From Psammoneis japonica (lineage: Eukaryota), in assembly GCA_008632985.1 (NCBI GenBank), contig QPGO01000060.1:372001-436000 (forward strand): a DNA stretch of 64,000 nt, in the 5' to 3' direction. This document shows, in pieces, positions 12,001-62,019 of the stretch. The number at the start of each line of letters is the position of its first letter. Position 1 is the first letter of the stretch. A program made the translations under genes and the position numbers. The notes beneath the pieces were generated by a model. That model was not told the origin of the DNA. It saw nothing but the letters and a program-made list of their open reading frames with translations, and did not search any database.

Positions 12001-15000
12001 TGCATCACCTTGCTCCACAATGGCCAGACCAAGGTTCTTGTTGGTCACACAGATTGCAAATCTTCAGTCCTTTTGCACTGGACTGTGGAGGGCTTGACAT
12101 TGTCTTGGGGAGAGATTGAAGTGAGATTTTCTCTTGGAGGCTTGTCAGCTGCCACAGTCTGCTGCATTCACAAAGTCCATCATGCAAAGTTCAATGGACC
12201 CAGTTTCTGCCAGTGGAGGAGGGGGTTGAAGCTGGATGGGACACAGATGTTGGGATCACAGTCTTTGTTGAGGTCCAAGACTGAGTTGTCGATGAAGTGT
12301 TTCAGGTGCATGGACAGCTGCAATCACTGTGTGCCTCATCTGTCACAAGGGAAAGATTTTGCTGACTTGGTGCAGAACTCATGGCCAAGACTGGGACAGT
12401 GCATCTAATCAATGACATCAAGACACAACAGAACAAGAGCACAGTTTCATTGCAAGATGTTGTTGGCCTGAAAACAAAGCCCTTCTGCTCCACCAATCAG
12501 AACTCTTCTTTTGCTGGGTCTCCATCAGCCTGAACTTTTGGCTTGACCCCTGCCTTGTTGGGCAGCTGCTTGCCTTGTTGCTCTGCTGCTGAAGCAGCTT
12601 TTGTGCACAAGCATTCATGGCAAACTCTCTCAATTCCAGTGGCAAACTTTCATCCAGATGCATTGAAAAGCATGATCCCCTGGTGAGTTGAGAAAAATGC
12701 AAAAGCCAACGATGAACAAAATCAGCAAGACGAGTGGGCATCCAATGATTTCCATCCAGGTTTTTGAAAAGTGACATGCAAGGACAACAGGCCAGCAAGC
12801 TCACTTGCAGCCAATTGCATGTGGCACTGCATTGTCATGGAGAAATGAATTCAACAGAAGGTCCGGTGCTGTTTCATGCACTGCAGCAGGTTTTGCTCCA
12901 ACCCAACCAACTGACAAAGGAAAGAGCTCTGCTTGAATGCAAAATTTGCAGCAAGGTGATGAGATGAGTTCATCATGCACAGCAACAAGTGTGTGACTTG
13001 TTCCTCAATTGTGGAAGTGTGCATGTTGTGTGCAGCTGTCATGGAGCTGAGTGCACTGATGGCATGCTTTTGACAACAGAGAAAAGAACAAATGACAACA
13101 CAATGAAAGGCTTTTTTCATTGAATGCTGCTTCACAAAATGGCCAGCAGCAAAAAAAGGAAACTTTGAAAGAGAGGAGAGGGCTCCATGATGGGGGCTGG
13201 TTGATTTCATTGTTCCACATGGGAAACATCTGATTGAATGGTGGGACCCTCTTTGCAAAGAGCTGTCATGAAATGGGCAATGCAAAGAGTCAATCACCCA
13301 ACAATGATGGTGTTGGTGAAGCCTTGTCTGATCATTCTTTTTGGCCATGCACCTGGCACAGACCCAGATGACAAAAGAGCCTTCACAGAGAATGCACCAC
13401 TTGGGCTTGTCATCAAATGCAATCTTGGTTTCAAGAGCAGGGAATGGAGCAAAGTCACCCCAATTGGCCTTTCTCCTGTTGCCAGTTTGTGCTTTGATTC
13501 AATGAGATGTTGCTTCTTTGCTGCAAGTGACATCCAATTGTTTGACATGGCATGTGAACCATTCACACACTGTTGGTGTCCATCAACAAATTTCACAGAA
13601 TGGTTGGCAAAATCTGATCTGTGTCACTTGCCATTCCCAGAGCACAAGGCCTGTTTGGCCATTTGCAAGTTGCTGTGTGGCAAGCACAAGGCACCCACCT
13701 TCACAAAGGCTTTCACCAAGCCTGGGTGATTTCCAATTGTGGTTTCATCTGGATCCAAGCAGGTGCCCCACTCACCTTCATTGATCAGTTCCACACCCAC
13801 CAGAGCTGGTGGCCAGACAGCACAATGCTTTGGGATTGGGAGCCAGCGGCATTTGGCTCCCTGACAACACTGCAGCCCATGGCGAAGCACCGCTTCTCAC
13901 CTTGCAACATGGTCATGTCAAGCCTGTCATGCTGACTGAACTGGCTCCTGTCTGGCAACACCACATCCCCAGCTCCACTTGGTGCACACTCATTGTGTGG
14001 TCAAACCCACATGACACTGCTGCCAACTCTGACTTGGAATCCATGGGTGGCTTCCCTCACCACAAGCATGCCAGATGCAGTCATCTTGTGAACACGTGCA
14101 TTTTAAAGTGCCACAAGTTGCTTTCAATGGGAGCACACTGAAGTTGTTCTTGTTCCTCACATTTGAAAATGTTTGCACATGTCAGTTGGCAATTGTTGTT
14201 CATTGGCACTTGCTGGATGACAAGCACTTCATGATCACACACCAACCACATTGAGCAATGTTCTTTTCACTGCCAAATGAAAAGGTCTGTGTTTGTGCAC
14301 TTTGTCAGTTGCTGGATTTTGTTTCATCAATTGAGTGTCCTTCTTCAATGTGGTCAACCACCAAAGTGTGATGACAATCTTTGCTGGGCAATGTTGTGCA
14401 AGTTCATGCAGATTCAAGCAAGCCTGTGCAAGTTTGTGCACGCAAGGTTGGATGCAAGATTGCACCCAGGTTGGTTTTTTTGCTGCCAGCAAACATTCTT
14501 GAGGCATGTGTTGCACAACATGATGACTTCATTTCATCAGTGGAAACAACCAACGTTCTTGAGTTGCTCTGCTTTCATTCTTCTTAGATGTCATTTTGTG
14601 TCCAAATCACTGAGTCTGAAAAACTCCGTGGAAGTTCATGCAAGCCAGCGCAAGCCTGTGCAAGCCTTCCTTCCTGTGAACATCAGTTTGGAAATCAGAC
14701 AAAAAGCACTGCACTTTGCAACATCACCAAAATTAGACAATGACTCCACAGCATGTGAGTTGAAGTAAAATCCAGTGACAAAATGAAGCACACATCTGAT
14801 CATGACCTTTCATTTGTTTGTGGCTTGTTGACAGTGACACAGCACACAATGTAATTTCTCATTGTGTGACATTCTTTGTCATTTGGGCAATGATTTGTCT
14901 GATGTGTGCACTCACATCTCCGCACAGCATGGTGAGTCAACCTGCATGTCAAGCACATGTGAATGGAGTGTTGCACAAGAACACATTTTTTGGGCCACCA

Positions 15001-15099
15001 ATCTGGCATGCCCAGAATGCAGTGCTCTGCTGTCCATGGACACACCACCAAAAAGACAACCAGACAACATCACAGCAAACCACCACAAACAAACCAACT

Positions 15100-16420
15100 G
15101 CCACCATCCCGCATGCATGATTGCCATGCAGCACCAGCAATGCTGCTGTTGCCTTGTCATCAAAGACCACCTGCCTGGCCCCACTGATGTCATGTTGGAT
15201 GATGCCTCATGCCTTTTCAGCCCCAACACTCACAAGCTCCTCTGTCACTTTGACAAAACTTGTTCACAGAACAAACCATGGCAATTGCTGCTTTCTGCTG
15301 TCACCTCTGCACTGCTCAACAATGTGTCAAAGCTGGAGCGGCATCTTCACAATCCAGTGCCACTGAGGGACAATGACAGACATGGGTTGAGTTCTGCAAA
15401 GCCCGCTCCCTGGATCCTGCCCTTCAAGAGTTTGATGATCCTTTTTCCATCCTCCAAGTCTTTGCCAGGCACTGCTGACTTGGGTCTCTTGCCCCCAGCA
15501 ATCACTGGGTCCAACCTCACACAGTGGAAGATGCCCTGCAAAGTGTCAGCCAAGTGTTTGCCGGCGGCAGTGGTGGCCCCAGACCCATGCAAGACCATCC
15601 AGGGTGACACAGACTTCCCACATTTGCTGCCAACTGGCCTGCTGCAAAAACAAATGCCCCAACCAAACTGGATGAAACCCATGCCAGGGCCTGTTTTGCA
15701 TGCACCATGGCTGCGGCAGTCCTTGCCATTGTGTCATTGAGGGCATGTGCATGGCTGACATGATTGCTCTGGCCTTTTTCTTCCTGCTCTGCCCCAGCAA
15801 ACACACCCTGCCCCATCTGACACTGCTCCTTTTCATCCAGGCAATTTCAACAGTTCACCAAGCTTGTTCACCACAACCTGCAGACTGCTGCCAAAGCTGA
15901 CCTGTGGGCACCCACCTTCACCACCCTTGAATTCACTGTGCAGAAGAGTGGAGTCCATGACAGAGTCATTGGCCTCTCTCAGTGGGGACCCACAGTTCTG
16001 CCCAGAGCTGATGCCAGTGTGATGTGTGCTTCACTTGTGCCAGCATGGTGCTGATCCCACCACTCCACTGGCATCATGCCATGAAGGCGTTGCCTTCAAG
16101 CTGGCAAAACCCACCAACCCTGCTTGCACCTTGTGCTCAGTGACTTGACTCCACCTGCAGTGCTTTGCCCAAGGATGTCTCCACTTGCTCCCTCCATGCC
16201 TGTGGTGCCACAGCCCTCTTTTGTGTGCAAGAAGTTGACCCCAACATCACTTGCCACAATGGACATTGGAATTCTGACAAAAATGCTGTGCCATCTCCAT
16301 GTCCAAGCCAAAGCTGTCATGCAAAATCTTTCTTCCCAAATGCCCTCCAATGTGACCTGCTCCCTGATTCCCAACCACAAAGTGCCCCTCTGTGCGGAGC
16401 ACACATCCCATGTTGCACTC
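15100..16420 (+). mobile_element. Degenerate tyrosine-recombinase retrotransposon (Ngaro/DIRS-like): end of RNase H plus YR domain
   Basis: DHLPGPTDVMLDDASCLF (consensus YIPGP.N.MADDASRL), ADMIALAFFFLLCPSKHT (AFFFLLRPxEYT), SLHACGATALFC (SLRAGGATAL), GHWNSD (GRW.SD) and MLCHLHVQA (MLRYLHVQA, catalytic Tyr read as His). Confidence 0.8.
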
Positions 16421-16470
16421 CCACCACCCACAATGTTGACAGCATGTCTTCTGCTCTCCACTGAAGTGTC

Positions 16471-16925
16471 CAGGAACTCAGCTTTGCAGCCAGTTTTGTG
16501 ACAAATGGGTCTGGAGCTCAAGCTCCACAAATGGACCTCTGCCACCAGACTAGATCAGTTTGATGCTGGAGTCAGCTGTGCTGTTTGAAGTGGCAACAGC
16601 TGCTGCAGAACAGGGAAGATGATGCAACAAGGGCCATTGACCAGCTTGAGTCTGTCCAACCAGGGACAGATGCCCCATGCCTGTCACTTGCCAGACCAGC
16701 CAATCACTCATGTTGGCAACTGATCGGTCTCATTCTTCATTGTTGTTGCAACAACAAGGAGTCAGGTGGCTTTAAAGGACCCTTTCACCCACCCCCCCAG
16801 GAACTGGCTCTTTGCAGCCAGTTTCTTGGCAAATGGGTCAGGAGCTTGAGCTCTGTAAATGGACCTCTGCCACCAGACTGGTTCAACACTGGAGCCAGCT
16901 GCACAGTTTGAAGTGGCAACTGCCG
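16471..16925. repeat. Diverged direct repeat of about 130 bp (16471-16605 and 16798-16925)
   Basis: Both copies share CTTTGCAGCCAGTTT, AAATGGACCTCTGCCACCAGACT and GTTTGAAGTGGCAAC. Several differences are CA versus TG. Confidence 0.85.
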
Positions 16926-19154
16926 CCACTTGCATTTCAGGATTGACTGGCTGCCTGAGTTGTCATCATGACACATGGCTGCAAATGATGGAAAGTCATG
17001 ACTGCTTGTTTCCTTTGCCACACATGGTGGGGAACAATGACAGTGAGACAGGCAAAAGCAACATCTTTTCACAATCTCAGCACAGCTTGACAAAACAAAG
17101 AACAAAATGCTGCTGTTCTGTGATGTTGCCACATGGCCTGCCGGCAGTGCATTTTGCAGTCAGGAGCTTGCACTCACAGGAGGTTGTTTTCTTTTGTCAA
17201 CCTGGTCTCATTCACTGCTTTTTTATCTGGTGCCCCTCTTCTTTTCTTGGTGACAGCCCCTTTTTCAGGGACTGAGGCTTCATGTTTCCCGGCTGAGCTT
17301 GCAGGCTGATGTGAGTCTGAGTCTTGTGCCATCATGCTTTCTTCCTCACATCTGTTTGAAGCAGAAAGTGTGGTTTGCTTGCATGCTTTCCAGGCACATC
17401 CTCATTGTCTGAGATGGTGCCAACTCCTGTCACCCCCTTCCTTCCAAAAGAGCCACAACCAGCTCAGAATGAGATGGTGGTGGCTCCACCTCTCACATGA
17501 CAATCTCATTGTGAAAATCTGTGCAACCCACAAAACATGTCAAGGCTTTGAGGACTGGGGGTCATTGCAGAAATGTGTTGCACCATGCATCTTGTCTTGG
17601 AGCCAGGTCAATTTTGACCCCATGGAAGGGTGCTTTTCATTGCTGCATCCTGCTGCATTCATGACATCATGAAGCAAGGAATTGCTTGAAACAAGATGAT
17701 GCCTCATCTGGTGACTCATCTCAGGTGTTCATGACAATCTTGGCAATCTTCTTGTTCTTGAGTGCACCACAGATTTTTCATCACTTTGCTGCTCCATTTG
17801 GAGCTTCTTCAATCATTTTTTCATGTTTCCCTTGTTGCCACAACTTCTGTTCCTTCCATGTGGCAACTCCATGACAAGCTCGGTTGTCCTCTTTGTCTTT
17901 TGCCTCTGGTGCAAACTGTGCTCATCGGCTGTGTTGGAGATGTGCACTCTCCCAGCTGTCAAAAACATGTGAAACACTGTCACATTGTGCAAAGGACTGC
18001 CATGGCTTCTTTCATTTGTTTTCAGTTGCTGCAACAATGTGGGCGCAACAACAGAGACAACAGTGGCAGCTGCCAAGCCTCGGAAGTCACTCGAGGCTTT
18101 GCAATCTGAGCTGCAAGTTGTTGCATGTCAAGCAAATTGAAGTTAAAAGGTGCTGGATTAATTTTTGAAGGCACCAAGGGCAGTGCATCCCCCCCAAGGG
18201 GGCAAGCCCCCACACATGGCATTGACAGTGGAGCTGTGAAGCCTGCGGCGGGTGCTGGGCCTGCTTGAGCTGCCCAAAGGCGCAGCAATCAATCTGCTGA
18301 CCTGGCACACTGCCCAAAGCTTGCTGTGGCCACACATCAGCACCCTTGTTTTTTGTGCAACCCAAGCCAAGTGCATGAAGAGTTTGTTGAAAGAATCTGT
18401 GAACATTTGTGCAAGAATCAGAGGTCAAGCACAAGGGAGCAAAGTTGGGAGGAAGGGCTTGAGTGTCAGCCATGGCAGGTCTGTGCTGGACATCAGCTGG
18501 GCAGGCTTTTGGCAAGCAAGGCTGAGCTCAGAAGATCTGTCATCTGCACACTCTCAAACCAGATGATGTGTTTTCATGCATGCCAGCTGTGCCACACCTG
18601 TGTTGGTCATTCCCAAAGTGCGTGCTTTGAGATTTTTGTGTGATGACCTCAAGCCCAGCTGAAGCTGGACAGAGTGCACTGCTTTGTTTTCCTCAACAAA
18701 TGAAGTCCTTGGTGTCACGAATCCCATGGACAAGCTAAAGCACAAAGGTTTTCCGTTGATTGCTGTGGTGCCAAATGTTGTGTGTTGGACAGTCGCAGTG
18801 TCGGTCATTGTGCATGCACCGCAAGCAAGCATGAGCATGGTAGCGCATGCACTCGCTCATGATGGTTGTCAGTCTGCAGTCACGCTTCCACGCGATGCCT
18901 CTTATCTTCATCGACTAATTTCTATTCCAAAGAACATAGAAAATATAAAAAAGCAACTCAATTCAAGGTCAAAATCGAGCAATATTCGGCGATTGCAGTG
19001 TTCTCTTTCCTGAGGCCTGTATGTGGCTGTCACAATGCCAGAGACAACGAGAGGACAATGGCGGTAAGAAAAACGTGATTGTTTATCACTGAAAGCTTGT
19101 GAATATGCCTAAGTTAAGTGACATATCTCATGTTAAGTCATTTTTGTTGCAAAG

Positions 19155-21008: not shown

Positions 21009-23584
21009 TCAATATGACTTTAGGTACTTCAGCAGCTCCATGTGCTTCTGCTTGACAAGACGAAGTAGTGCAATTTGTCGGTCGATCCCCAATGTATGAG
21101 ATGCCACCATTTCCTGGACTGCCTTGTGGATCGCTCTTGTAGCTCTTCTTGGAAGAAGCGGCGAGCAGTAATCCAAGAGCGTCAGATAGGAGTGCACGTG
21201 AAGAACGAATTCACCAAGTTGGGTAGAAGGTAGAATCGTTGCGATAGTTGTCACTGATTCCACCTGCGACTCGTTCACATCTTGTCCAACCGTCGCATTC
21301 ACCGGGGGAGCGGCAAGCAGAAAATCTATCTCCATTTCGTCAAGGTATTCAGCCATCTCTGCATGGACGCCCTTAACTGATCGAATTGTCTTCGTTTTTA
21401 TGGTGAAGAGAGACCGATATATTAACCGTGTGCCAATCAAGACAATCAACACAGCTGGAATTGCTGCTAGGATTTGCATGTTGAGTCGATTGGCATCTAT
21501 GAGCACATCAATGCTTGCCATTGCGTGTAGAAGGCCCGCTTTCAGCTGCTGCACCTGAACTAACATGAGGCGAGGCAAACCACCCTTTACGACCCCAGAG
21601 AATATTCCACTCTTGATGTAATTTTCGTAGTGTCGTGAAGCTTTCTGTAATGCATCCTTTCGGGTAGCCGCCGTGCCGTCACCAAAACCGCAATTCTTCA
21701 GCATATTATCGAGACTCTGTTCTTCGTTGTCAATGTCGAAAGCTTCAAGAAGTCCGGGGTCTTTGTTCATCAACCCTTGAATGATACCATAAAAGGGAAT
21801 CCAGAAACGCTGCTTAAATATGGTCCACAAAATTTGGGATGACTCAATTCGCATCTTGTTGAGTTTCGGCCAATACGGCACAACCACATTATGAACAATG
21901 TTGGCAAATGAAATCATGAGCAAAGCTGAAGGGATCCCAAAAACGTTAACTCGCTGAGCCCAGAACTTTATCAACGAGGTCTCAGACAAAGTAACTGTCC
22001 TCCCTTCCCCAACGTGCTTCACTGATTCAAGATTATCGACCAAATCTAGTACTGCTAGCCACTGCTTGTGAAGGTCTCTAGACGTCTCGCTGTCAAAACT
22101 GCACCAACTTTCAATAATCTCCTGGTCGTCTCTGGTCTTGTCGTTATTGGAATTTGTCATGCTGGTTTCGATCGCGTCTCTGAGTACGTTGCAAAGCCTT
22201 AAGCGAGCTTCTTCTGTCCAGTTCTGAGCTTCTTCAAGCCAGGCGTCTGGATCAAAATCTTTGTTTTTTACAAGAGCATCCCAAGCTACATCATCGCGAA
22301 TCGTCGTGTCACCGTCATGTACACGAAGGGAGAATCTTCCACGACCTTCTGCATTGTACCGAAGGCTGTATCTTGAAAGTTTGGGCAGTTTCAGCTTCGA
22401 GCTCTGGCTTCCTTTCGCTTGCTCAGCCAATTCAGCAGCTGTCATGTTTCGACTCTTGATGATAGAATCCAGCAGTGTTTTATCCGTCATGTCGTCTGGT
22501 CGCTACGGGGAAAAACGAAAATTAGAAGTACTTTAGAATCAGAAGAATCAAGATGCCAAGGGCTAGTGATCCCTGACGAGGTACATACCTCCATAAGAAT
22601 TTGCTGAATAGAGCCAAGTCGAGCAATTTCTCCCTTGTATGCGGCGCTGGCAAAGGAATGACGCATACGATCACCTTCAATCGTCGCACTCATGAGGCGT
22701 TCAAACATCCACCCAACGTCGTCATTGATAGCGACTCTTCTCTGCCAGTGCTTTCTGTTTCTATTCAAACGTAGTGAGGTAGTCAGTAAGTTGTCTCGCG
22801 CTAATCGAAGCAGGGCATCTAGAGCTCTGATTTCTGCCGTCTTGACTGACATCTTGAGAATTAGATCCGTCGCTGTATCTTGAAAGGCCTCGTCCTCTCC
22901 AAGAGTCGTAGTTGTGTCAGTTCGAACGAGTTCCTGTTCTAATCTAGAGAGAGGCCCTGATATCTCCTCGACGAAGTTATACCTTGGGTTTCCGGGCTTA
23001 TATGAGACTGACAGGGCTTCCATTGCGGCATCTGCTTGTTGTGGTAGTTCATGCTGTTTCGATAGTCGCGATAGAGCGGATGTACACAGTCTCCGTCTAG
23101 TTCGCTCGACACCTCCATACACATCGTACGATTGATCATCAGAATCCATAGTGAGAGCATACCGTCTTGTGCGTCGCTTCTTCTTTCCTTCCTGCTTCAA
23201 AACTCCCTCCACAGACCCGACACGTGTTTTGTAGACCGTAAAAATTCGACCGGTCCATATCAACCGCAGAAATACGTACATTGTCACGATTCCCACAGGA
23301 GGCTTGTACATGACGATCTCATCGAATCGTTCCACATACTCCATTGCCCAGTCTGGGACATAGCGTTCAAGGCTGGACCACCACAGCTCGGGCTTTTTGT
23401 CTTGAACCATTGTTGGTGGAGGAGTGAAAGGATCAACGTCACATTTTTGGTCTAGAGCTATTGTTGCATCTTTGCTGCTGCTTCTTCTTCCCAGTCGGGG
23501 CTTCCATCGGCAGTCAATACCATTGATCAATAGAAGTACCGTGACGAACCGCAAAGTACATCGGAAAGAACAGCTCCGTCTCAT
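21009..23584 (-). CDS. NCA2/DGS1-family protein (nuclear control of ATPase 2); two exons, intron 22503-22588
   Basis: GGLPRLMLVQVQQLKAGLLHAMASIDVLIDANRLNMQILAAIPA resembles the NCA2 domain. A GT...AG intron joins ORF 22487..23617 to ORF 21009..22490 in frame (ILME|RPDDMTDK). Confidence 0.8.
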
Positions 23585-23681
23585 CGTGGAAACAAAACGC
23601 ACGTCTAGAGTCTGCAACTGCAGATAGAAAAAGCAGGAAAGCTCAAATACAGTAGCGCAGTCTAATAAAAATTAAATATAT

Positions 23682-24034: not shown

Positions 24035-24784
24035 ATATTATACAACATCGTCAATGGATAGTCATTCAAAATTCAAAATTTCGGTTTGTCCGTCATCGCG
24101 ATAAACCAAGCAAGGAGACGAGGAACGAGGAACAACAAGAAGATGTGCGTGTGCGTGTCCTGACGACTCACACTCGTTGCGCGGCCTGCCAGACTTCCAT
24201 TGTCGTCTCATCTTCAGGTCCATCACACCCACGGTGCTTTCCTGGGACAGGGCATGTCTTCTTGAAATGCCACCCTCCATGCACCAAGGAAGGGTGACGC
24301 TTTCGATTTTCCCACCCTCTTCCACGGTGTCCATTGATGAGAATGGGTGAGAGCACCTTGGCCCCGTGGTTCTCTTGGCAAACCACATGCTTCTCTTTCA
24401 GTCCCTTTGCATCAGCAAACAGCTTCAATTCTTCATGAAAAGCAATCCACAGGTGTGGCTCTCATTGTTTGCAGTTTTGAGGCAAATGGGCACTTCAGTT
24501 TTCACCTTCTCAACTGGCAGGGAGTCGGAGCGGCTGTGGACATGTTTGCTGCTGCAGCAATCATGACTTGATGTTTTGCAAGGATGTGTGTTGAGTCTCT
24601 CACAAAGTGTCAAGGAAAAAATCCATGGAGAGCACTTGGCAATTGCGGTTCTCTGCATTTTTGTTTGTTTCACATTTGTCGTTGAACGCTCTTGTTGAGA
24701 TTTGTGTGGGGCCTGCAAATTGACACAGTGTGTGTGGCAGTGCCACAAAAATGTTGTTTGTTTGTTGCTCTGCATGGAGATGAA

Positions 24785-24810
24785 AACAACAACAACAACA
24801 ACAACAACAA
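24785..24810. repeat. (AAC)8 microsatellite
   Basis: AACAACAACAACAACAACAACAACAA read directly from the sequence. Confidence 0.9.
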
Positions 24811-25279
24811 GAATGACAACTGTGCAGCAGCAATGAAAAAATGAGAACTTCAGCACTTCTTTTTCAGCGTGAACATTTTTGCTTGCAGAAATTGTCAAAA
24901 TGCCCCACTGACTGCATTGCAGCTTGATCATTTCAATCATTTTAAAATGCAAACCAGTGCTCAGTGCTGTGAACATCAAATGAGTGCAATGATGCAAGCA
25001 CAGTTCATTGTCATGATCCGTGGCAATGCCACAAGCAAAAAGCAGGAAATGCATTTGAAAACCCACTGGCATGTGAAGAGGCAGAAGCTCTGCCAGATGG
25101 AAGGAAAAAGACAGAATTGTTGAAGCTGTTGCCCGGGGGGCCAGTTGTGACAAGCCAAGCAAATCAAGATCTGACAACTTTGATGCATGGTGGTTTCATC
25201 AGGCAAAGGAGAAGACAACTGCAGACACACAATGGATGAGGAAAATTTGCCCAACAGCACCTTGAATCATGCAGCATTG

Positions 25280-26240
25280 TGCAACTTGCCATTGTGCTTG
25301 ACATCAAGCGCAGCTTCTGCATCTTCCACCACAACAAAGCCAGAACACACACCTGCATTGGCTGCATTGGTTCACATTCTGACCCTCCTGAAAGCACAGC
25401 CAGAGGCCAATCTTTGATGCAGCCAATGTGGTGCACCTGTGAGATTGACCACAAAGACCATTTTGGCATTACATCCAAGATGCAAATGTGCTGCTCTTCC
25501 AAGTCCTGTCAAAAGCAAATGTTCATCAGCTCAGCCATCCATGAGACAGAACAAGGAAATTCCTCAAGGAGTGCAAGAGACAGACATGTGCTCAACCATC
25601 AACTTGCTTTTTCTTTTCTGGCAATGGGATCAGGAGGCCAAGATGCTTCAAAACTGCTTGGACTGCTGGACCTGCCAAATGCAAAGAGCATGGGAAAGGA
25701 CACTTTCTCTCATGTCAAGAGAAAGATTGGTCCAATGATGTGGAGCATTGGTGATTCATTGCCGGATCATGCCCTTCAAAATGAGGTTTGGGCCACACTG
25801 GAGGAAATGCCACAGCAAGGTGTCACTTTTGATGCATGGAAAACAATGCCTCCTGTGAGAATGGCACCCAACTTGGTGTGTGCCCTGAAATCACAGCATC
25901 CACTGACATGGGCTGGCAAGCTTGTCTCATGGCCAATGCTGGCATGCCTCTCACCACTGCCTTTCTTGGCACCAAGCTTCACAAGCGAATTGTCAGGATG
26001 GTCTTGTGAAAGCAATGCAGCATGTGCGTGCAACACACCAACCACACAGCTGTGCTGATGCGTGAGTGCCCCTTGAACTGCAAAGGTCATTCAAAGTCAA
26101 TGGAGGCACACAGCACTGTTCAGTTGTGCAAGGAGACATGTCATGAGAAAAAGAAAGTGTGCCTTGGGTTGGTTGTTGCAGATTGCAACTCCACGATGCG
26201 GGCTCAGCTCAAGTGCCGGGCTCAAAAAACCTGGTGATGT
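25280..26240 (+). mobile_element. Degenerate DDE transposase (Mutator-like-domain / Kolobok-type)
   Basis: HVLNHQLAFSFLAMGSGGQDASKLLGLLDLP, ASTDMGWQ (about 25895-25920), CPLNCKGHSKSMEA and LVVADCNSTMRAQLK occur across frameshifts. Termini were not identified. Confidence 0.7.
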
Positions 26241-27629
26241 TGCTGGAGACCACACTGGAAATGAGACAAACTCACCTGCACTGGTGACAGCAACCAAAAA
26301 GGCAAGCAAGACAGCAAAGGTGTGCAAATCTTGCAAAGGCACTTGTTGATGACAAGGCAGATTTGGTGATGATGTCATGGAGAGGGTGTGATGCCGTCGG
26401 CGCAAAATTGAAAAGGGAATCAGGGTTCTGTTGAGTTGGATTTTTGATGAGTGTGATTTGCTTGACAAACTGCCGCCGCTGAACCCTGACAATGATGATG
26501 ACACTTTCCAGATGCTCTTGCAGAGGATGACTTTGCAACAGGCACTCAACACATCAATCAGCAACATTGTTGTGAACACAAACACATGAAAAGCCCCCCG
26601 GACAAAGTTGCAATCGTTCAACAATGAAGAACACATCAAAGTGACTTGTCGAAAAACAGAGCTCGGCATTGGGGCGAGGTTTTGCTTTGGAAACGAAGGT
26701 TGCTCACGGGACTTTCATGACTGAGTGCGTTCTTAAACTTGACAAACTAAATGTCTAAAGACAAAAGACTCTGGGACACGTTGCTGACATGACAAATGTT
26801 GCGACAACACACCACCTTCACGTCGCCGCCTTCTCTAGAGTGGTTGTCCGCACAAATGCCACATTTGCGCTGCATGGGGCCCTGTGGCATCACTGTGGCA
26901 TTTCCATCCAAAACGCCACCACTGTTTTTACAATGCATGCTCCCCAACTGTTTTGCCGTTGTCAGCAAAGCATCAAACACCGCAGGGCAAAGGGGCAAAG
27001 GCCTCTGAGCACCAGCAAAAAACCGAATTGAGTCCTTGTGACTGAACTGAGTCCTTGTCCAACCCACATGTTGAATCGATCGATAAAATGATGAAAAAAC
27101 CAAGCAACCAAACTGTTTTTGTTGCTGTGACAATCTTCAATTGCTGCTGCTTCTGACCGTGTGTTTGGATTTGGGTGTTTCAGTTTTCTCCGGCTGCCCG
27201 TTGCCGTCGAACATGGTTGTTTGCATTTTTTGAAGCGAAAACAAGATTCAACAATTCGCACGAAACTTTTTTGTTAAGCCACACATGTCACATGTCATCA
27301 CTTCTCCATGCTGCTTGCTGATTTGGAGGTGTGTTGAATTTTTTCTGGTGCTTGACACGCAGAAATGTACAGAGGGACCGAATTGAGTCACTGCGTGAAA
27401 AAGGTGCAACTTTTGCGGCCATTTGAGCTAATCCCAAGCCCATTTCACAACCAACTGTCATCAGAGAACTCGTCAAGAGATGATGAAAAGCTAGGAAATG
27501 CAAAGAAATGGTCAGTTTTAGGCCAATGATGGGCAAAAAATGGCCATTCAACATGTGGCAAAAATGAGGACTCAATTCGGTTTTTCACTGGTGCATGAAA
27601 AATGAGTTCGTCGCAGTCGGAAGCCATGA

Positions 27630-27804
27630 TGCAAGATCTGGCTTGAGATGACTTGAAAAAAGTTGTGCAAGAACCGAGGAGAGACCCCATCATTGCTGAT
27701 GTGGGGCAAACCCAACGGTTCCCGGCACATCTAATGTGTCAGTCAACACACACACATCAGAGAGGGCACACTCGGTCACAAAGTGCATGTGCCCATCTCA
27801 TTCA
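27630..27804 (-). repeat. 3' LTR of the Gypsy element
   Basis: Ungapped 175-bp alignment to 33421-33595; preceded on the minus strand by the polypurine tract. Confidence 0.95.
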
Positions 27805-30137
27805 CTCTTCCCCTCCATGGTGCAAGGGACACATGCACCATTGGAACCACTTGACTAAAATTCAAACCCAATGCGCACGGAGAAGGGAACCCAGACGTTG
27901 GGAAGAAACCCTCAACTCTGATGCGGCACCACATGGCGAATGTCAATTCGCTCAATGAGGTGCGGTGCTTGCAGCACCGAAACAGTCCCGTTGGCACAGA
28001 CTTGCACAATTTGAAATGGACCACAAGCTTGTTCTTCCAACTTTGAAGGATCCACCGACTTGATTGACACATCTTGACCAACTGGACAATTGCAGGAATG
28101 GTGCTTCGCATTCTGTCATCGTAGATTCTCTTGTCGATCAACACTTGTCAGTTGGCTTGTGTTGTTGTGAGGTCGGAGACAACAGGTGGGTCCAAAATCA
28201 CATCACGTTGAAACACTGGAGCTCCACTTGAAACACCCGCAGACCTTGAGTGGGAGCATCGCAAGGCACAGGAGGCTGTGGCAAGGGCATCGTCCACAAT
28301 CTGCTCGGCCTGTTGAACATTCAAAGGTGGGTTAGTGACAACCACAGTGCACAAGATGTCAGCTGCCGTCTGGTGCATTTGTTCACAAATGGAGTTGGCT
28401 GTGGGATTTTGAGATGTTGTCGGTGCATCAGCAATGCCCGCTTGGTTCAGTGGCATCTGAAATTCCCAACCAATGAATTCTCCACCATTGTCATGAATGC
28501 ATCGATTCGGTCTGGGATGACGAGCCAACCAAAGGTTGCAAAACTTGTCAGTCACATGCTGAGAAGTTTTGTTGTCAATGCGCACGAGTTCAGTCAATCC
28601 AGCAACAGCATCAATGCAAGTGAGAGCACTGAATTCAATTTCTTGGTCTTGAATCATTGTCTTCCACGGTCCAATGAGATCAACTGCTGCTTCCGTCCAC
28701 GGAGCTAACGGCGCTTGACGTTGAGGCAATTCTCCACAGCCAGGACCCAGTTGTTCAAATTGTTGACATGCATCACAGACAAATTCATTGCAACGTCGAC
28801 GCAATGCAGGATGATGCATGTGAGTCCGAACACTTTCGTGCAATTGCACGACTCCACAATGGCCCAATGTGCGATGACACCATGCAATGACATCCCGCAA
28901 CAACGCAGCAGGGAACACAAATCTTCCAGGCTCCAGGCGGATCATTCAAATGCAAACGACAACAAATCAGGGGACGATGGTTCACAATCTTGACCACAAA
29001 CTGCTGAGGGTTTTGTTGTCTTTGCTGATTCAGTTGGAGGTCTTCGAACTGGAACTGTTGGATCCTCAACATCTCAGTGGGATTTGGCATCTCGTCCAGT
29101 GTCGGGTGATTCAAAAAGCATTCAAACAATTCAGGCTCATTGAGCAGAGAGGAAAAGGCGGCGCGAGACTCATCAGAAGGATCAACAGGAGCACGGCAAC
29201 ATTTGAACCTGCAAGCGCCCAACTCCAAATCTTCCTCTTCCTCTTCCTTGCTCAGTTCACTGGAATCCAACTTTTCAAAATGAACAATTTTTCCTTTGCG
29301 TTTGCCACTTGGCCCAAGGCTCTTCACCTCCAAAGGCGGATCCACACGTGGCAGATGAGAAAAACAATCGGCGAGCACGTCATCCTTGCCCTCGACATGC
29401 TCAAACGCAGGCGCAAAATCTTTGAGGAACAGTCGCCAACGAAGGACACGCTGTGTGTTCAAAGTGCGAAAGGTGAGATTTTTGTGATCAGTGTGAACAG
29501 TGATTTCAGCACCGAGTGTCATTGAGCGAAATTCCTTGAAGCACATGACGACGGCCAGGAGTTCCTTTTCCATTGTTGACTGACTCCGTTGAGCCGCCGA
29601 AAGCTTCTTAGACCAACGCGCCACTGGCTTGCCATCTTGAATGACAGCGGCGCCCATCTGGCAGTCTGATGCATTGGTGCAGACATGTCGAACACTTTCT
29701 GGCATGATTCCATCCATTGGAACTGACTCTTGCCTGTCAATTCAGTCAGAGGTGCAAGCAGGTGAGAACGGTGAGGCCACACATTGCGACAGTGAGTCGC
29801 TGCACCGAGAAACGATCGGAGTTGAGCAGTGTTCTGTGGAGGTTGCATTCGTAGAATCGCTTCGACCTTTTTCTTCCACGGTTTGACACCAGTCGGAGCA
29901 AGCCAATGCCCCAGGAAATTGGTTTCTTGAACACACCACTCGCACCTCAACGGGTTAACTTTCAAACCATTCTCCTCAAGACGATGATGCAGCACCTTGT
30001 CAAGACGAGAGAGATGGCAATCAAAGTCAGCATCAAATGCGCCAACATCATCAACATGAGTTTCAACATCCAAACCATGAAGAATCTTTTCAACAATGGA
30101 CTGAGCAATGTCTGGAGCTGGCTTCAATCCCACAGCC

Positions 30138-30527
30138 GACGGGTTCCAGTCCTAGGTGGGACTCCGTGTGACATTGGGCCCGTAGAATTCTACGTGCGAG
30201 CTCCGCAGTGCTAGAATTTAATTAATGGATGTGTTTGTCTTCAACATCAAATGAACTGCCAAGTTTGTGGTACAATTATGCCTCTTGCCACTCGACGTTT
30301 CTGCAAATGCGCCTGCCCTACGCGATTCTTAAGACATTATAGAATCGCGCTGTAACAAAAAATGTCAAAAGTTGTTGGACGGATCGCTCAATAAGTGTAC
30401 CGTAAAATGACACAAAATATCGAAAAAATCACGTAGAAATCTACGTGCGCGACATACGACGTGATTCAAAAAACTATCGATGTCACAGTTCAGTAGTACG
30501 AGGTCCCACCTAGACCTGGAACGCGTC
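30138..30527. mobile_element. 390-bp MITE inserted in the Gypsy RT; 30-bp imperfect TIRs, 4-bp TSD AGCC
   Basis: Left end GACGGGTTCCAGTCCTAGGTGGGACTCCGT; reverse complement of right end GACGCGTTCCAGGTCTAGGTGGGACCTCGT. AGCC lies at 30134-30137 and 30528-30531. Excision restores the RT frame GKFQCCRMA-VGLKPAPDIAQ. Confidence 0.93.
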
Positions 30528-33420
30528 AGCCATGCGACAGCACTGGAACTTTCCGCAGGGAGTTGCAATTGCAGCGAGCTCCTTGCTTTCATCGTCCAAT
30601 TCCAAATTGTAGTAGAACACAGTGAGATCCAATTTCGTGAAGAATTTGCAGCCCGCTCTCCGCTGCAGCACATCTTGAACAACCGGCAGAGGACACACTT
30701 TCCACTTGAGGACCTTGTTGAGCTCCCAAAAATCTGATGCCCATCGCACTTGACCATCTTTCTTCGGAGCAATGAAGGTGCCAGCTGCCCATTCCGTAGG
30801 TCCACATGGTCGCAGCATGCCGAGATTCACCAGATGCTTTCCATTCCTTCTTGAATGCTTCTTCATTGACTCGAGCAACAGGAAACGGTTTTGAGTGATG
30901 AGGAACAGCGTTTTCATCCACTTCAAGGTGCACCTTTTCATGAGGATGGTGGCCCAACGTCCCATCAAATAAAGTCGAATGCTTTTCCAACACCGCTGGT
31001 GGCTTCTTCTTTTGTTCTTCTGTGAGATGGTCCAAGTTCCAAACTGCCTCCGCCAGATCCGTCGCTTCGCACTTGGCATCAAGCGTGTGGGTGTCATGTC
31101 CGTCGTCGCATCCGCAGTCCGACTCGTCTTCACAATCTTCATCAAATTCATCCATTTGGTCTGGGGCAATGTGCCAATTGCAGGACTTGGACCAATGACG
31201 AGGTTCCTTCATTGGGATCACACGGTCTAGCCAATGCAGCGTTCTCGCATCACAGTTCAAATTGAGACCAATCTTGTCCAAGAAATCTCGACCCAAAATG
31301 ACATCATGCGCACACGGAGCATTGAATGCGTGAGCCACACAGCCGTCAATCCTCCTGGTCTTGTCGAATTCTGGCAATGCAATGTCGCTCAAGGCCACCC
31401 AATGGCCAGACTGGAAAGGACCTGCAACGGTTTGAAAAGCTCGGACTCCATGTTTGTCAATGGATGGCACAGCTCCTCGAGGTAAAACTTGAGACGAGAT
31501 CATAGTGTGAGAACCACCTCAGTCAAACAAAACACACATCACATGATTCGACTCATGCCGTTGGATCAATTTTGCAACAAGTGGTGCAGATGGGACCAAC
31601 GCGGTGCGCGAGACTTGCGAGTTCATTTTGGGGAGAGGAATGTCACATTCAAACGCATCTTGATCAAACACATCCCCCTCTTCATTCATGCAATTTTCTG
31701 CAGCATTTTCAAATTCAACATGCAACAATTTGTCAGGATTTTCAAAACAGTCAAAAGCAAAACATTCGTCATTTCATTCAGGCAAAACACAATCATTTTC
31801 ATCAACAAGTGCTTCTCTCACAGGCAATTGGGAGCATTCAGCTCCGGAGCATTCAGCTCCGGAGTTTCAGAACTGCCAAGGAAACTGCCCATCTGGCTGA
31901 AACCTCACCACACCTCCACAACATGGAGGGCCTCGTCCGATCACATTGAAATGGTGCACATCACCATGAGGAGCTTCTTGAGCCTGGTTGTTGTCACTCA
32001 CATTGTCTGCTTGAGCAGCACATCCATCGGCCTGACCTTGGCCTCCACGGTTGTTGTTTTCATTGCAACAATGTTGACCGCCACCTTGGTTGCCATTGTT
32101 GTTCTGGTGTCCATTGTTGTTGTTGTTACAACAGGTGCCATGACCTCCTTGGTTCTGGTTGCCACGACCACCAAAGCATCCACCGCCTCCACGGCCTTGT
32201 CCACGGCCTCCTTGGAAACGACCTCTGCCTCGACCTCCACCGCCACAGCCTCCTCCTTGACCGCCACGGTTTTGAGGCCCACGACAGTTGGGGTTGTTTG
32301 GATCATCACAACACTGGCCCCACGCATGCCTTCCATGGTGCCACGGGACCGGACACGGATCACTCGCCTTCGGCTGGCCCCTTGTTGTCCTTCTTGTCTC
32401 GGTTGCCCTTTTTGTCACTGGAGTTCCCTCCATTGCCATTGTTGGACTTGCGTTTCTTGTTGTCTTGACCGTTGGCGAACACCTTCTCGTTGCTCATGCA
32501 GGCTTGGACATCCACCATCAAATCCGCAACAAGGTTCTTGCCCGCATGAATGTGGGGGCTGTTGCCAGGTCAAAGGAAAGGTGTAAAAGATGATGTTCTT
32601 CTGCTCCTGCTCTGTAAGTTCAGGAACGGTTCCAGGCAAACGGTTGGCACAACGAAACAAGGTTTCCATGCGATCAATGTGAGTTTCCAATTCCGCTGAA
32701 CAAGGCTTTTTGCAAGCAGGCAAATGCATCTTCATCGTGTCGCGAGCTGTCGGTTTTACGCAGTGCAAACAGCAAGCCGAGACAGCCTCATTGAATTGAG
32801 CTGCCGTTCGTTGATTCTGTTGGACACCCATGGCAATGTTCTGCCATTTTGCCTCCGCAGTGCCTTGGAGACAATCCTCAAAAGCATCAAACAATTCTGT
32901 TCCAGCATCGCAGTTGAGCTGTCTTGCCACCTTCCGGAACCCATCCTCCACGTGCAACAATGATTCAATTCCATGCTCTCCTGTGAAAACAGGACACATT
33001 TTCGAAAGTTCAGTGCCATCATCAAAGGTTTGAGTGAGCTTCACTTCCTGCAATTCTGAATCTATGAATTTGGTCTTACATTCAACGCACGCTTTCTCCA
33101 AGGCTTCTTGACACATGGCGATGATCAACAATCCACAAGACAAACAAAATGAGGTGCTCCCATTTGATCCACACAACAAGAACAATTGACAACCAAACAA
33201 GAACAAATTCAACAGTGGCAACACGTGCTTTGAGTTCAAAAAAATGCTGCTCCGCATTGCCAATTTCACGAGCAAAGTTGCACTGCGCTTCTGATCGATT
33301 TTGAATGAAATTTTCTGCATGAGCTCGCAAACAAATTTTCTCTCTTCTCGACAACACTCTTTGCGTTGTCACAAAACAGATGATGCAATGAACAAGCTGT
33401 GACAACGACTGCAATTGCAG

Positions 33421-33595
33421 TGCAAGATCCAGCTTGAGATGACTTGACAAAAGTTGTGCGAGAACCGAGGAGAGACCCCATCATCGCTGATGTGGGGCAA
33501 ACCCAATGGTTCCCGGTGTGTCTGGTGCATCAGTTGATGTGCACATGTCAGAGAGGGCACACTCAGTCATAAAGTGCATGTGCCTGTCTCATTCA
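33421..33595 (-). repeat. 5' LTR of the Gypsy element
   Basis: Ungapped 175-bp alignment to 27630-27804 with 26 mismatches. Confidence 0.95.
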
Positions 33596-34323
33596 CACGA
33601 ATCATCAACGCCGGCATGCCTTTTTCACACGCTTTGTGGCATTCCGTAGAATCAGTGCCAGGTCCGGCATAGAAAGAAATGCCACATGGCATCATGGCAT
33701 TTGTGCGGACAACTTCTGGTGGGGTCCGACAGAAAATCGATCCTGAACCAGGCCTGCGGGGAGCATTGACCACTTGTCTTTCTTTGTGGGTGTGGGTGTG
33801 TGCCGCTGCATGCTGCATTGCCTGCACTCCTGCGCACGCAGGGCCCTGCCGCCGGGGCCGGCATTGTGTGTGGCGGCTGAGTGGCGTGGCCACCGCACCG
33901 GTGATGCGGATGACCGTCATGTTTGATGTCTCATGCCATTTTTGGGGCTGTGGCGAGGTGCACGGACACTCTTTTTTTTCCAATTTATCGCCACAACAGC
34001 GCATCGCACAAACTCTCTTGTTGTTCGATGTGTTTTTCCCAATGTGACTCTTTCGTGTAGAATTCACGACATGTTGTCTTTGTGCGCAACTGAGTGCATT
34101 TTTGAACATGCCACGCCGGCAGCCCCAATTTTTCAGAACTTTCGAGCTCTCCTGAAAAACCGTGCCACGCACCCGTCGCAGGGAATTTGTCGATTTTTTA
34201 GGATGTCCCCACGACCTCTCATGTCCTCAATGATCATTCTACGAATCCGAAGAATTCATCTGTACTAAACAACCCATCCCGTTCCAAAATCCGAGGGACA
34301 CACTTTCAAATTCAGACGGACAA

Positions 34324-36048: not shown

Positions 36049-36199
36049 TGATTTTGAACGATTCATCGACGATCTATCTTTGGTTGAGCATGCTAGGGTG
36101 TTATGTTCGCATTGTGTGAAGAACCCGTACCGTTTCCAACGTGGAAGCTGTAACCTGAGTTACTTCCTTCTCCATTCCATCGCTGCAACTCTGCACTGC

Positions 36200-36240
36200 A
36201 GAAGTCCGGGGTCTTTGTTCATCAACCCTTGAATGATACC
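36200..36240. repeat. 41-bp exact copy of NCA2-like coding sequence (21748-21788)
   Basis: AGAAGTCCGGGGTCTTTGTTCATCAACCCTTGAATGATACC is identical at both loci. Confidence 0.95.
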
Positions 36241-36699
36241 TTTAATGCCTCCTCTGCGTTATTTGGGACACATAGCGTCAATGCGTTACATTCGAGCACC
36301 TCAACTCGTCTTATGGAAGAGCCCGTTGGCCACCAACCACTTCGACTATTTTTCAACGACTTTGTTTTTTTCTACGTGGGAACCAGCATTGTTTCTACGC
36401 AGGATCAAACCACGGCTACGAATCGACTTACGGCACTGCACCCTTCGATCCATCAAGGCTTTGCTGCTTTTTTTGCAGTGATTCATTGACAAGCATCCAT
36501 TCTGTTGATATTGGCTATTTTTTACTCCGTTGCCGGTGGTTGTTGATGCTCGTAAGCCTTACGAAGACTTGCCAGCCTTCATCCTCCGAATCGGACATCT
36601 TCTACGTGACCTCTAGTACAAGTTCTACGTGTTGATACTGTTTTATCCCGGCGAACCATGACGCTCTCTTACGGCACCAGTGATGACCTCTCCGGGATA

Positions 36700-38470
36700 G
36701 CTGATGATGATCCTGCCTCAGCCTTCCTCTCTCCTTCTTGTGAAATGTGCCAGCAGCTGTGGATGTGATTCTTGCCTGTCAATGCTCTCTGCAGACAAGC
36801 AGTCGGGAGCTCTTTTCTGTCACCCCATGGCGCCGGTAGATTCTTTCCAACTGGCTCTGGAGCTGACGAAACCAGAGAATTTTGAGCTGCCTGATTGTGA
36901 CAATGCTTGGAATGCGTTCTGTCTGCACACTTTCCTGTTTGCAAAGTTTTCAAGTCAGGATCCCAGGACGGTTCTAGAGGAGCTCTTGCCCTCTTGCTCT
37001 TTTGAGTCACTTCCTTGCCTCCGCTCGCATGTTGACCGGTGGCGGCATTTTCTGCTTGAACAGCTTGCCTCTCCCACTTCTGATCCCTTTGTCATCGATG
37101 TGGACATTGACAAAGCAGCTTCCAAGGTGGCGCATGAGTCCATTTTGCCTGTGCAGCCCCCTGAGCGATGCCCTGATGCGGGTTGCCCGTGCAGCCCTGC
37201 CGCATCTTGTCGATCTGGTTCTCTGCCACTGAGATCAATCAGGGCCTTTGCTTTCCCTTTGCATCCTTTTGATTGGGTTGACGGTTGTGTTTGCGATGCT
37301 CCTGCTTCTGGGAATGATGCTGACGTGTCTCTTTGTTTTGGAACAGACGCCACATTGGATCCTTCCAAACTCCCCGACGACGACCCATTTTCCCCTGGAT
37401 TGAAGTCTTTGCAGCTGCACCCCATTGCAAATGCTGTGTTGCCACTGCATTCCTTTGGTTGGATTGATGGACTTGGCTTTGAAGGTTCTTCCATTGCCCC
37501 AGCTGGCTTTTCTCTCAGGTTTGGTTCTGCTGCGACTTTGGATCCATCCAAGCTGCCCCACGACGACCCAAACGAGGATGCCCCGCACCCCGTCACATGG
37601 ATGACCAACCTCTCCTTGGATGTCTTGACCCTTTCTGATGATGACCCAAGCCGTCTTTCCTTGCCGTTTTGTTGTTCTGCTCCCTGGTTTGATGACCCAA
37701 TGTTGGATTTGTCGAAGCTGTCCAATGACAACCCTTGCTCTTCTTCTTCCAACTGGGGGAGGGTTTCTTGTGCTGCACTGCCTTGCAGCGGATTGTCCGG
37801 TGGACTGTGGCACGGCATTTGTGGATGTGTTTTTCTGATGACAGCATCATTTGCTCCATTTGTGCGGCTCTTCTTTTTTTGTGATCAAACCCATGCTTTG
37901 ATCAGGGGAGGGTGTTGGTGCACCGGAGCCAACACAATCAACGAGGTCTCAGACAAAGCAACTGTCCTTCCTTCCCCAACGTGCTTCACTGATTCAAGAT
38001 TGTCGACCAAATCTAGCACTGCTGACCACTGCTGGTTTGTCCGTCATCGTGACAACCGACCAAACAAGGAGAGGACCAACCAACAAGCTGCCATGGCCTG
38101 ACCTTTCATGGCACAAAGGCATTTTGGCAGTGTGCAAACAGAGAGATTTTTGGAAAGGTCCAACAAGCAGCACAGAGTGGCGAACATGCAAGCATTGCAA
38201 TTGACGAATGCCGTGATTTCCAACCAGAATTGTTGGCCCTTGCAGATGTGGGCAGGTTGCAGGCGAACAGACCAATCCACACTGGGGCTTCAAAACTGAG
38301 AGAAACTCTACTTGTCGAGAGACCGTTTCCTTTTGCAGTGCGGGGATCAAAGCTCAAGGTTGCTGGTTCATGTTCTGACTGGCGCAGAGTGAAGACGAAG
38401 ATGGGGAGACCTTTCATCCACTGAGATTCTTGGTGCCCCCACGGGCCTGTGCTACAGAGATGGTGCATTG
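36700..38470. other. Hypermutated block 3: chimeric repeat relic with a Tyr-free ORF (36704-38101) and a captured gene fragment
   Basis: TA is nearly absent while CG is partly retained. The ORF has LDPSKLPxDDP-like internal repeats and includes the NCA2 fragment. Confidence 0.75.
37937..38033. repeat. 97-bp mutated copy of NCA2-like coding sequence (21970-22066)
   Basis: Ungapped alignment with 6 differences, 4 of them TA to CA or TG. Confidence 0.95.
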
Positions 38471-38544
38471 CCATCTAAGCAATCCGTGTTTGACTATCAT
38501 CGCCCAAGGCAGGAAACTTGTAAAAGAAGGATGGCAGTGCTTAA

Positions 38545-61382: not shown

Positions 61383-62019
61383 GTTGTTGTTTATTTTCTC
61401 TGTAGTAACGCTCTCTCTCACACACTTTCTCTAAAGTTCGCTTTTTCAATATCTCCAATGAGAGTTTGTTCCTTGTTGTTGCTGGAATCCCACAATGGAA
61501 ATCAATCGTTTGTTATTATAAGCAACGGGGTATGAAACAAAATTGCTTTTTGTAGAAGCCCTTCGAAAATGGAGTCGTGGGTCGCTGAGTTCACCTTTGC
61601 AACCGTCCGTTGGAACAACGACGTTTTGTTCACAGCTTGATAGTCATTGATCACTTATAAATGTTTGACTCCAGTGATGAAGTTATTTGAATCATGTATA
61701 AGTCATTCTCGTGTGATATACCTTCAATGGCGTTTAAAGGCACATGAATGAAGTTTATATGACAATGCAGCTGTCCGTTGAAAATTACATAGGAAAGTCA
61801 ATGTACAATGGACAGAAAGGTGCTGTCATTAGTGTCATTCAATTTCAAATTCTTGTTTTCCGCGAAAAAAAAACGACGTCTGTCACTGTCAGACATCCAG
61901 CGCAACACTGGTCCATCTCTGGCAGAGCTTCTCCAGTCTTGCTAACAACGAAAAGTAGAATGACTTGCTAGAGAGATAAAGTGCAAGCCCTTCAGGGAGG
62001 GAGGGGGGGGGGGGGGGCT

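Follow-up and report, generated by a model that had tools for sequence, protein, structure and literature searches.

A host-gene fragment in a TpA-purged block of Psammoneis japonica DNA points to post-insertion mutation of TpA to CpA and TpG

A 64,000-nt stretch of Psammoneis japonica DNA (assembly GCA_008632985.1, contig QPGO01000060.1, positions 372,001 to 436,000; hereafter ‘the window’) carries a 97-bp copy of an exon of its own NCA2-like gene within a 1.75-kb block that is almost devoid of the dinucleotide 5′-TA-3′ (TpA), and the copy has itself lost most of the TpA steps of the gene. We consider it probable that the copy is a passenger scrap, struck by TA-to-CA/TG mutation together with its surroundings after insertion. 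Under this explanation, a scrap of the NCA2 exon, joined to a scrap of the upstream region of the gene, would have been inserted into a decayed gene of an unnamed family, and the whole block would then have been mutated at the DNA level, with 5′-TA-3′ becoming CA or TG; the change would be A-to-G after T on either strand, running from the gene state to the copy state. The process would strike defined blocks of transposons and other decayed, apparently non-functional DNA, would leave neighbouring genes untouched to within a few hundred bases of a block edge, and would erase TA faster and further than the CpG-to-TG/CA decay of the same blocks. It seems to act in episodes, such that a later insert would have escaped. 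We infer that this erasure is a targeted host activity serving genome defence, and that its chemistry is adenine deamination at TpA, by analogy with what has been proposed for Bigelowiella natans.

The NCA2 fragment and its carrier block

All block, fragment and element counts were made within the window, and dinucleotide contents are given as counts or as observed/expected ratios (obs/exp). The fragment, its donor, its carrier and the related scraps are as follows.

21009..23671, minus strand: NCA2-like gene in two open frames (21009-22502 and 22487-23671), PF08637 at E 5.7e-21
22503-22588, minus strand: intron of the NCA2-like gene, 86 bp, GT..AG, joining the two open frames
21970..22066, minus strand: donor segment, codons about 146-178 of the NCA2 3′ exon, with 5 TA and 3 CG
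36700..38450: block B3, carrier of the fragment, 1.75 kb, with 4 TA (obs/exp 0.041) and CG obs/exp 0.46
37937..38033, plus strand: NCA2 exon copy, 97 bp, with 1 TA and 3 CG, about 420 bp inside the right edge of block B3
36200..36240, plus strand: second NCA2 copy, 41 bp, identical (100%) to 21748-21788, outside the TA-poor block
38034..38075, plus strand: third mosaic piece, abutting the 97-bp copy and resembling 24083-24121 just upstream of NCA2

A BLASTN search of 36000-38600 against the whole window revealed 93% identity over 100 bp (E 2e-37) between 37937-38036 and 21970-22069, in agreement with the initial annotation, which had described the segment as a copy of the NCA2-like exon; the base changes that it had listed were reproduced exactly by base-by-base comparison. 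Read from gene to copy, these are GTAA to GCAA at gene position 21992, a single C to T at 22002, TTAT to TTGT at 22035, GTAC to GCAC at 22050, and CTAG to CTGA at 22057 and 22058. All six differences are transitions, and the two 97-bp sequences match perfectly once they are collapsed to purines and pyrimidines. Four of the five TA are lost, all to CA or TG, with two T>C and two A>G changes on one strand; the surviving TA lies at 38014 of the copy, and none of the three CG is lost. The changed positions comprise 4 of the 10 TA positions versus 2 of the 87 others (Fisher one-sided test on the 97-bp exon segment and its copy, p = 8e-4). Once inside the target, this passenger of host origin underwent the same mutation as the sequence around it. 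With the fragment set aside, block B3 holds 3 TA where the genic ratio predicts about 50, and its 51 CG compare with an expectation of about 109.

Judged by sequence, the NCA2-like gene is the donor of both the 97-bp and the 41-bp copy, because the residues encoded by each copied stretch can be aligned with those of NCA2 orthologs: W148, L154, R163 and E166 are nearly invariant, and G167 is invariant. Among 33 NCA2 relatives in the protein collection, which include sequences from the diatoms Thalassiosira and Fistulifera, identity reaches at most 54%; 14 of them entered the alignment. On the strength of these relatives and those of a retrotransposon described below, the window was treated as nuclear DNA of a diatom-like stramenopile. 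The donor itself is untouched, as the initial annotation had noted; its exon keeps 5 TA, its frame is intact and open, and its TA obs/exp of about 0.58 matches that of the other genes of the window. Contigs of public runs (X1 and X2; one sample, one study) were compared with the window. One X2 contig (record 9; the type of this run is not on record) leaves out 22503-22588, and the two exons meet in it exactly, as they would after splicing. In the NCA2 gene, three of the four TA changes are synonymous by base-by-base comparison. The two changed residues, Thr171 and Leu149, sit in variable ortholog columns, Leu149 being common only to the closest ortholog, and the ortholog comparison is therefore uninformative for polarity. 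Since the same differences, read backwards, would look like CpA-to-TpA changes, the direction of change must come from its context.

The 97-bp copy is one of three scraps of the NCA2 locus. The 41-bp copy does lie outside the block and is identical to the gene, as had been reported, in a region (36000-36700) where TA is dense throughout; it says little, because it contains only one TA and one CG. The third piece matches 24083-24121 at 83% over 42 columns, with its first 16 bases identical, at an E value that is marginal (2e-5 for a search of 2.6 kb against 64 kb). It has GACAA for GATAA and CGTG for CGCG, such that one of one TA and two of four CG are changed. Its junction with the 97-bp copy, at 38033/38034, is bridged by an X1 contig (record 8, 37970-38295, 0 differences). 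The three scraps have sharp ends and follow the order and orientation of the source locus; nothing was detectable between them, and the 41-bp and 97-bp pieces had no residual homology to each other in a collapsed-alphabet comparison (local score 17, shuffled range 16-23). They could have been copied as patches from a template locus 15 kb away, or be what is left of a rearranged duplicate. No further pairs of genic and block sequence emerged from a self-comparison of the window by BLASTN (11 pairs) or from a 34-mer search in the purine/pyrimidine-collapsed alphabet.

The carrier contains an open frame of 466 codons (36701-38098, plus strand) without a single Tyr. Residues 48-141 of this frame have one weak homolog among 1.8 billion representatives (E 2.8e-6, 35% over 91 residues); the frame matched no Pfam family, and a full HMMER search returned two weak hits without useful names. 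There are no signs of a retroelement in B3 or in the host-gene scrap, and the frame looks like a decayed gene of an unnamed family. By summed contig depth, a measure that should not be taken for copy number, B3 stands at about twice the level of single-copy DNA. Between 36827 and 37701 the window differs from the run contigs at 10 listed places, nine of which are at CG or TA steps; eight are CG versus TG/CA, in both directions, and one is TA versus CA, at 36837. This suggests that CpG decay is still segregating between alleles or copies, and the differences may reflect allelic or paralogous copies decaying independently.

TpA-purged blocks and the direction of change

Block B3 is one of four purged blocks, and block B2 includes a retrotransposon that carries the evidence for polarity and timing.

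4800..18700: block B1, 34 TA (obs/exp 0.035), CG 0.088, CA 1.88, TG 1.89; purged of both TA and CG
24103..34000: block B2, TA obs/exp 0.05-0.16, CG 0.37-0.77, its start lying about 430 bp upstream of the open frame of NCA2
24103-27600: segment of B2, 13 TA (obs/exp 0.053), CG obs/exp 0.37
27630-33596: gypsy segment of B2, 46 TA (obs/exp 0.118), CG obs/exp 0.69
61980..64000: block B4, 4 TA (obs/exp 0.034), CG obs/exp 0.14, running off the window
27622..33596, minus strand: Ty3/gypsy long terminal repeat (LTR) retrotransposon inside B2, with integrase, RNase H and reverse transcriptase (RT) domains, of a family with about 35 copies by contig depth
About 27622-27805 and 33413-33596, minus strand: gypsy LTRs, flanking the element
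27918-31749, minus strand: gypsy pol, with frameshifts
30138..30526: insert in the gypsy RT resembling a miniature inverted-repeat transposable element (MITE), 389 bp, ending in imperfect terminal inverted repeats and flanked by the 5-bp direct repeat CAGCC

Dinucleotide ratios were counted per kilobase and per block, with 35.4 kb of the window serving as the genic reference. Genic DNA has obs/exp values of 0.55 for TA, 0.98 for CG, 1.15 for CA and 1.18 for TG, versus 0.04, 0.09, 1.91 and 1.85 in the oldest blocks. Only TA and CG fall in the blocks and only CA and TG rise, the latter two to about 1.6-1.9 across all four, while the other 12 dinucleotides depart from their genic values by no more than about 0.2. 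Counts of CA and TG are similar in B1, 24103-27600 and B4, and differ more in the gypsy segment (651/512), B3 (131/199) and 33597-34000 (36/47). About 26 kb of block sequence has a TA obs/exp below 0.12. The block edges are sharp to about 100-150 bp; at the start of B2, for example, the last TA is at 24102 and the next at 24943. At the level of blocks, TA loss is independent of CpG decay, a point that the initial annotation had drawn from the fragment: in 24103-34000 and 36700-38450, TA stands at 0.04-0.12 while CG stands at 0.37-0.69. In 4800-18700 and 61980-64000, by contrast, neither ratio is far above zero.

The blocks and the mosaic are not errors of assembly, because X1 contigs reproduce the purged stretches 24822-26812 and 37970-38295 with 0 differences, although the X1 run possibly derives from the same sample as the assembly. 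The X2 contigs provide no cover over most purged bins, and nothing was drawn from them there. Since the stops TAA and TAG cannot exist without TA, the blocks carry long open frames on both strands that only TGA interrupts, with 64 frames of at least 120 codons in the approximately 29 kb scanned. Pfam searches of these 64 frames identified gypsy domains only, and no viral gene was recognised among the block frames. In B1, 30 frames were without a Pfam match, and the longest, the sole one searched further, returned one hypothetical protein; B1 has no recognisable domain. The targets seen in the window are a gypsy element, a putative decayed gene of an unnamed family and unidentifiable DNA.

The initial annotation had read the direction of change as TA loss in the copy, and this is borne out, mainly by the gypsy pol and LTRs and not by the 97-bp sample. 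Homologs of the gypsy element include diatom-named sequences; the best 22 of 120 listed homologs (44-62% identical) were placed on the window by tblastn, and a column was called conserved with at least 70% agreement among at least 10 homologs. In 489 of the 620 such columns the window copy is identical to the consensus. Conserved Tyr is kept in only 2 of 23 columns (9%), the losses being to Cys (TGY, 10), His (CAY, 7), Phe (2), Arg (1) and Gln (1), whereas all 19 conserved Cys and all 15 conserved Trp columns are intact. Conserved Arg is kept in 31 of 50 columns (62%) and is otherwise now His (7), Gln (6), Trp (2), stop (2), Cys (1) or Lys (1), with the CpG signature in all of these losses except the one to Lys. 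Among the 131 changed columns, 48 revert to the consensus through one CA/TG-to-TA step, 27 through one CA/TG-to-CG step and 9 through another single transition. The homologs have a median Tyr content of 3.5%, while the four pol frames of the window copy contain 0, 0, 0 and 1 Tyr. Because the conserved tyrosines are needed for the function of the element, TA was lost after this copy had stopped functioning.

The LTRs provide the timing. The two LTRs of one retrotransposon are identical at integration; over 176 bp, this pair now differs by 26 substitutions, 25 of them transitions. Eighteen of the 26 form nine CA-versus-TG double differences, as arise when one ancestral TA (or CG) is resolved independently in each LTR, six oppose CA/TG to TA/CG, and two lie elsewhere. 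The mutation therefore followed integration and acted on DNA, and it hit both strands. This divergence, together with the occurrence of T>C and A>G on one strand, means that editing of RNA or cDNA before integration was not the main cause.

Alternative explanations and known systems

Of the alternatives, the one that fares best keeps the same process and changes its chemistry, and we regard it as unlikely but deserving of attention. Here, a putative thymine modification at TpA (hydroxylation, e.g. 5-hydroxymethyluracil or base J), or mis-repair in silent chromatin, would be read as C. Because TA is its own reverse complement, A-to-G on one strand and T-to-C on the opposite strand look alike in sequence, and both are present, with two of each in the fragment and 10 Tyr>Cys and 7 Tyr>His in pol. 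Some protists modify thymine preferentially before A. Adenine deamination is nonetheless favoured by the sole experimental precedent, B. natans, for which an ADAT2-like adenine deaminase is put forward, itself just a proposal (bioRxiv 10.64898/2026.01.13.699255).

It is very improbable that the RNA or cDNA of mobile elements was A-to-I edited, by an ADAR- or TAD-like enzyme, and then integrated. The 5′ T preference does resemble that of known A-to-I editors, ADAR preferring U before the edited A, as cited in the preprint on B. natans (bioRxiv 10.64898/2026.01.13.699255). Such editing would be strand-specific and precede integration, but both strands are changed within single short stretches, the LTRs differ at 26 sites, 24 of which are at CA/TG/TA/CG steps, and neither B3 nor the host scrap has the hallmarks of a retroelement. 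ADAR and APOBEC editing of retroelements in animals shares with our pattern the clustering of deaminase-type transitions in mobile DNA, and differs from it in acting on RNA or pre-integration cDNA with a strand bias, whereas here the changes came after integration and on both strands.

We give hardly any credence to a reversed polarity, in which the copy would be ancestral and the NCA2 gene would have gained TA by a process resembling repeat-induced point mutation (RIP) of fungi. Every TA difference would then be a CpA/TpG-to-TpA change, involving the 4 of the 17 CA/TG of the copy that are TA in the gene, and CpA-to-TpA is the signature of Neurospora RIP. However, the NCA2 gene has the same TA content as other genes and an intact frame, the 1.75 kb around the copy is almost free of TA also where it has no homology to the gene, and the tyrosines of gypsy record a loss of TA, not a gain; the presence of the gene’s Leu149 in the closest ortholog lends weak support to the same direction. 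Equally little can be said for the absence of any special process, whether chance neutral transitions or selection against TA (e.g. through a TA-cutting nuclease or a chromatin property): the small sample and the non-significant contrast between TA and CG within the fragment would favour it, but the Fisher test on the TA positions and the approximately 26 kb of strongly depleted blocks speak against chance, selection that destroys conserved tyrosines of decayed, frameshifted elements is implausible, and GC-biased conversion would not also convert CG to CA/TG.

Several observations weigh against the explanation that we prefer, mutation of a passenger by post-insertion TA-to-CA/TG change. The 97-bp fragment is a tiny sample, as the initial annotation acknowledged, and its contrast between TA (4 of 5 lost) and CG (0 of 3 lost) is not significant on its own (p = 0.07); this contrast agrees with separate processes and adds little weight. 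NCA2 orthologs, the best being 54% identical, do not polarise the fragment, and 47 of the 131 changed pol columns are unexplained by any single transition. The TA that survive in the blocks favour certain contexts: CTAA, GTAA and TTAA (and complements) account for 53 of 80, versus 39% of 1309 genic TA, and ATAT, ATAC and GTAC together for only 3 of the 80. This skew could be either a context rule of the process or a mark of newly created TA. Finally, a 394-bp span inside the purged gypsy element (30133-30526), which holds the MITE-like insert, keeps 24 TA (obs/exp 0.82) with a CG obs/exp of 1.39, and the episodic reading fits only if this insert is younger than the purge.

The insert also bears on targeting. 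Its empty site is represented by three X1 contigs that join 30132 to 30527, and its summed depth is very high. Since the insert has kept its 24 TA, position within a purged block is not sufficient for mutation, and neither is high repetition. In the simplest reading, the insert speaks for an episode that was limited in time or directed at particular elements, and against a chromatin domain that stands and mutates continuously. The initial annotation had proposed that targeting follows the domain or the carrier element and not homology pairing of both copies as in RIP. The part of this that stands is that the passenger was mutated like its surroundings; the remainder overreaches, given the shortness of the 97-bp copy, the single TA of the 41-bp copy and the unmutated insert. 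Fungal RIP needs duplications longer than 97 bp, and an intact donor therefore does not exclude that the carrier paired with other copies. With a fragment below this length and a carrier at about twice single-copy depth, homology pairing is not tested by the fragment.

Among known systems, the closest is that of B. natans, as described in a recent preprint (bioRxiv 10.64898/2026.01.13.699255, Mettrop et al.). Changes of the A>G or T>C type made up 230 of the 231 new mutations that mutation-accumulation lines of this alga gained in two integrated viral regions, and they all fell on TpA; rates there were about 1000-fold above the rest of the genome, and only some of the lines were affected. Its genome holds 124 clusters of TpA-poor, CpA+TpG-rich windows that are enriched in RT and DDE domains (bioRxiv 10.64898/2026.01.13.699255). 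The window shares with this system the TpA-to-TpG/CpA change on either strand, the delimitation of affected regions beside normal DNA, the TpA-poor and CpA+TpG-rich signature, and an apparently episodic action, seen there as the restriction to some lines and here as an unmutated later insert. At the level of sequence, then, the pattern has the features of the B. natans process: TpA to TpG/CpA, both strands and delimited regions. The differences are that new mutations were observed there whereas the signature here is a fossil one alone, and that the purge here is near complete (TA obs/exp 0.03-0.12) versus 0.45 in the nucleocytoplasmic large DNA virus (NCLDV) region of B. natans. The new mutations in B. 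natans fell in integrated viral DNA, while the targets seen here are a gypsy element, a decayed unnamed gene and unidentifiable DNA, with nothing viral recognised. Unlike in B. natans, CpG decay accompanies the purge, and the host is a diatom-like stramenopile and not a rhizarian.

Fungal RIP is likewise a host process that makes transitions in one dinucleotide context in non-genic or repeated DNA, and it too strikes passengers. Its polarity is opposite, however, since RIP makes TpA from CpA and TpA is destroyed here; in place of TpA-rich targets we find blocks that are almost TpA-free. RIP would mutate both duplicates, whereas the donor exon keeps its 5 TA (with the caveat of length given above), a very high-copy MITE-like repeat is unmutated, and there is no evidence of duplicate pairing. 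Decay of CpG through 5-methylcytosine shares the CG-to-TG/CA changes of the same blocks (CG obs/exp 0.09-0.69; the 27 single-step CG reversions in pol). It cannot remove TA, and TA loss is the more complete of the two, in blocks still at 37-69% of expected CG. CpG decay explains only the CG component.

Consequences of the purge and neighbouring genes

The first report of a host process that mutates adenine or thymine at TpA in chosen nuclear DNA dates from 2026 and concerns one alga, and we know of no enzyme for it. Full-text literature searches found no report of TpA loss or purging in diatoms, and ‘TpA’ and ‘deamination’ have 0 occurrences in the available text of a paper on diatom DNA methyltransferases (PMC9998398). 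A saturated signature in a diatom-like genome would extend the process to a second major lineage, one with many sequenced and transformable species in which experiments could address the enzyme, how its targets are signalled and what the process costs genes nearby. We tentatively raise the possibility that diatoms possess a DNA-level defence that erases TpA, by A-to-G change after T on both strands, from newly silenced or invading DNA, together with any host passengers, in bursts, independently of and faster than decay by cytosine methylation, and that this is the same system as in Bigelowiella and an old feature of the stramenopile-alveolate-rhizarian (SAR) group. If such a SAR-wide system existed, it would be an old lineage feature and not the curiosity of one alga.

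There are practical effects as well. With TA purged, an element has no Tyr codons left and no TAA or TAG stops, which creates long false open frames, a trap for gene prediction, and it escapes homology-based annotation of repeats and genes. The 97-bp scrap of a housekeeping gene indicates that host origin gives no protection inside a target.

Two further features of the window concern its genes. A frame at 460-2721 (plus strand, 753 codons) carries a C-5 cytosine DNA methyltransferase domain (PF00145, E 1.2e-45, residues 431-745) and lies about 2 kb from B1. As a point of background, diatom DNMT4 has been related to the fungal RIP enzyme RID (PMC9998398). Similar gene pairs occur at 39629-42342 and 59368-61430, both on the minus strand and about 20 kb apart, each with a PH-domain frame beside a TPR-repeat frame. 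Host genes of normal TA content may have been duplicated locally here.

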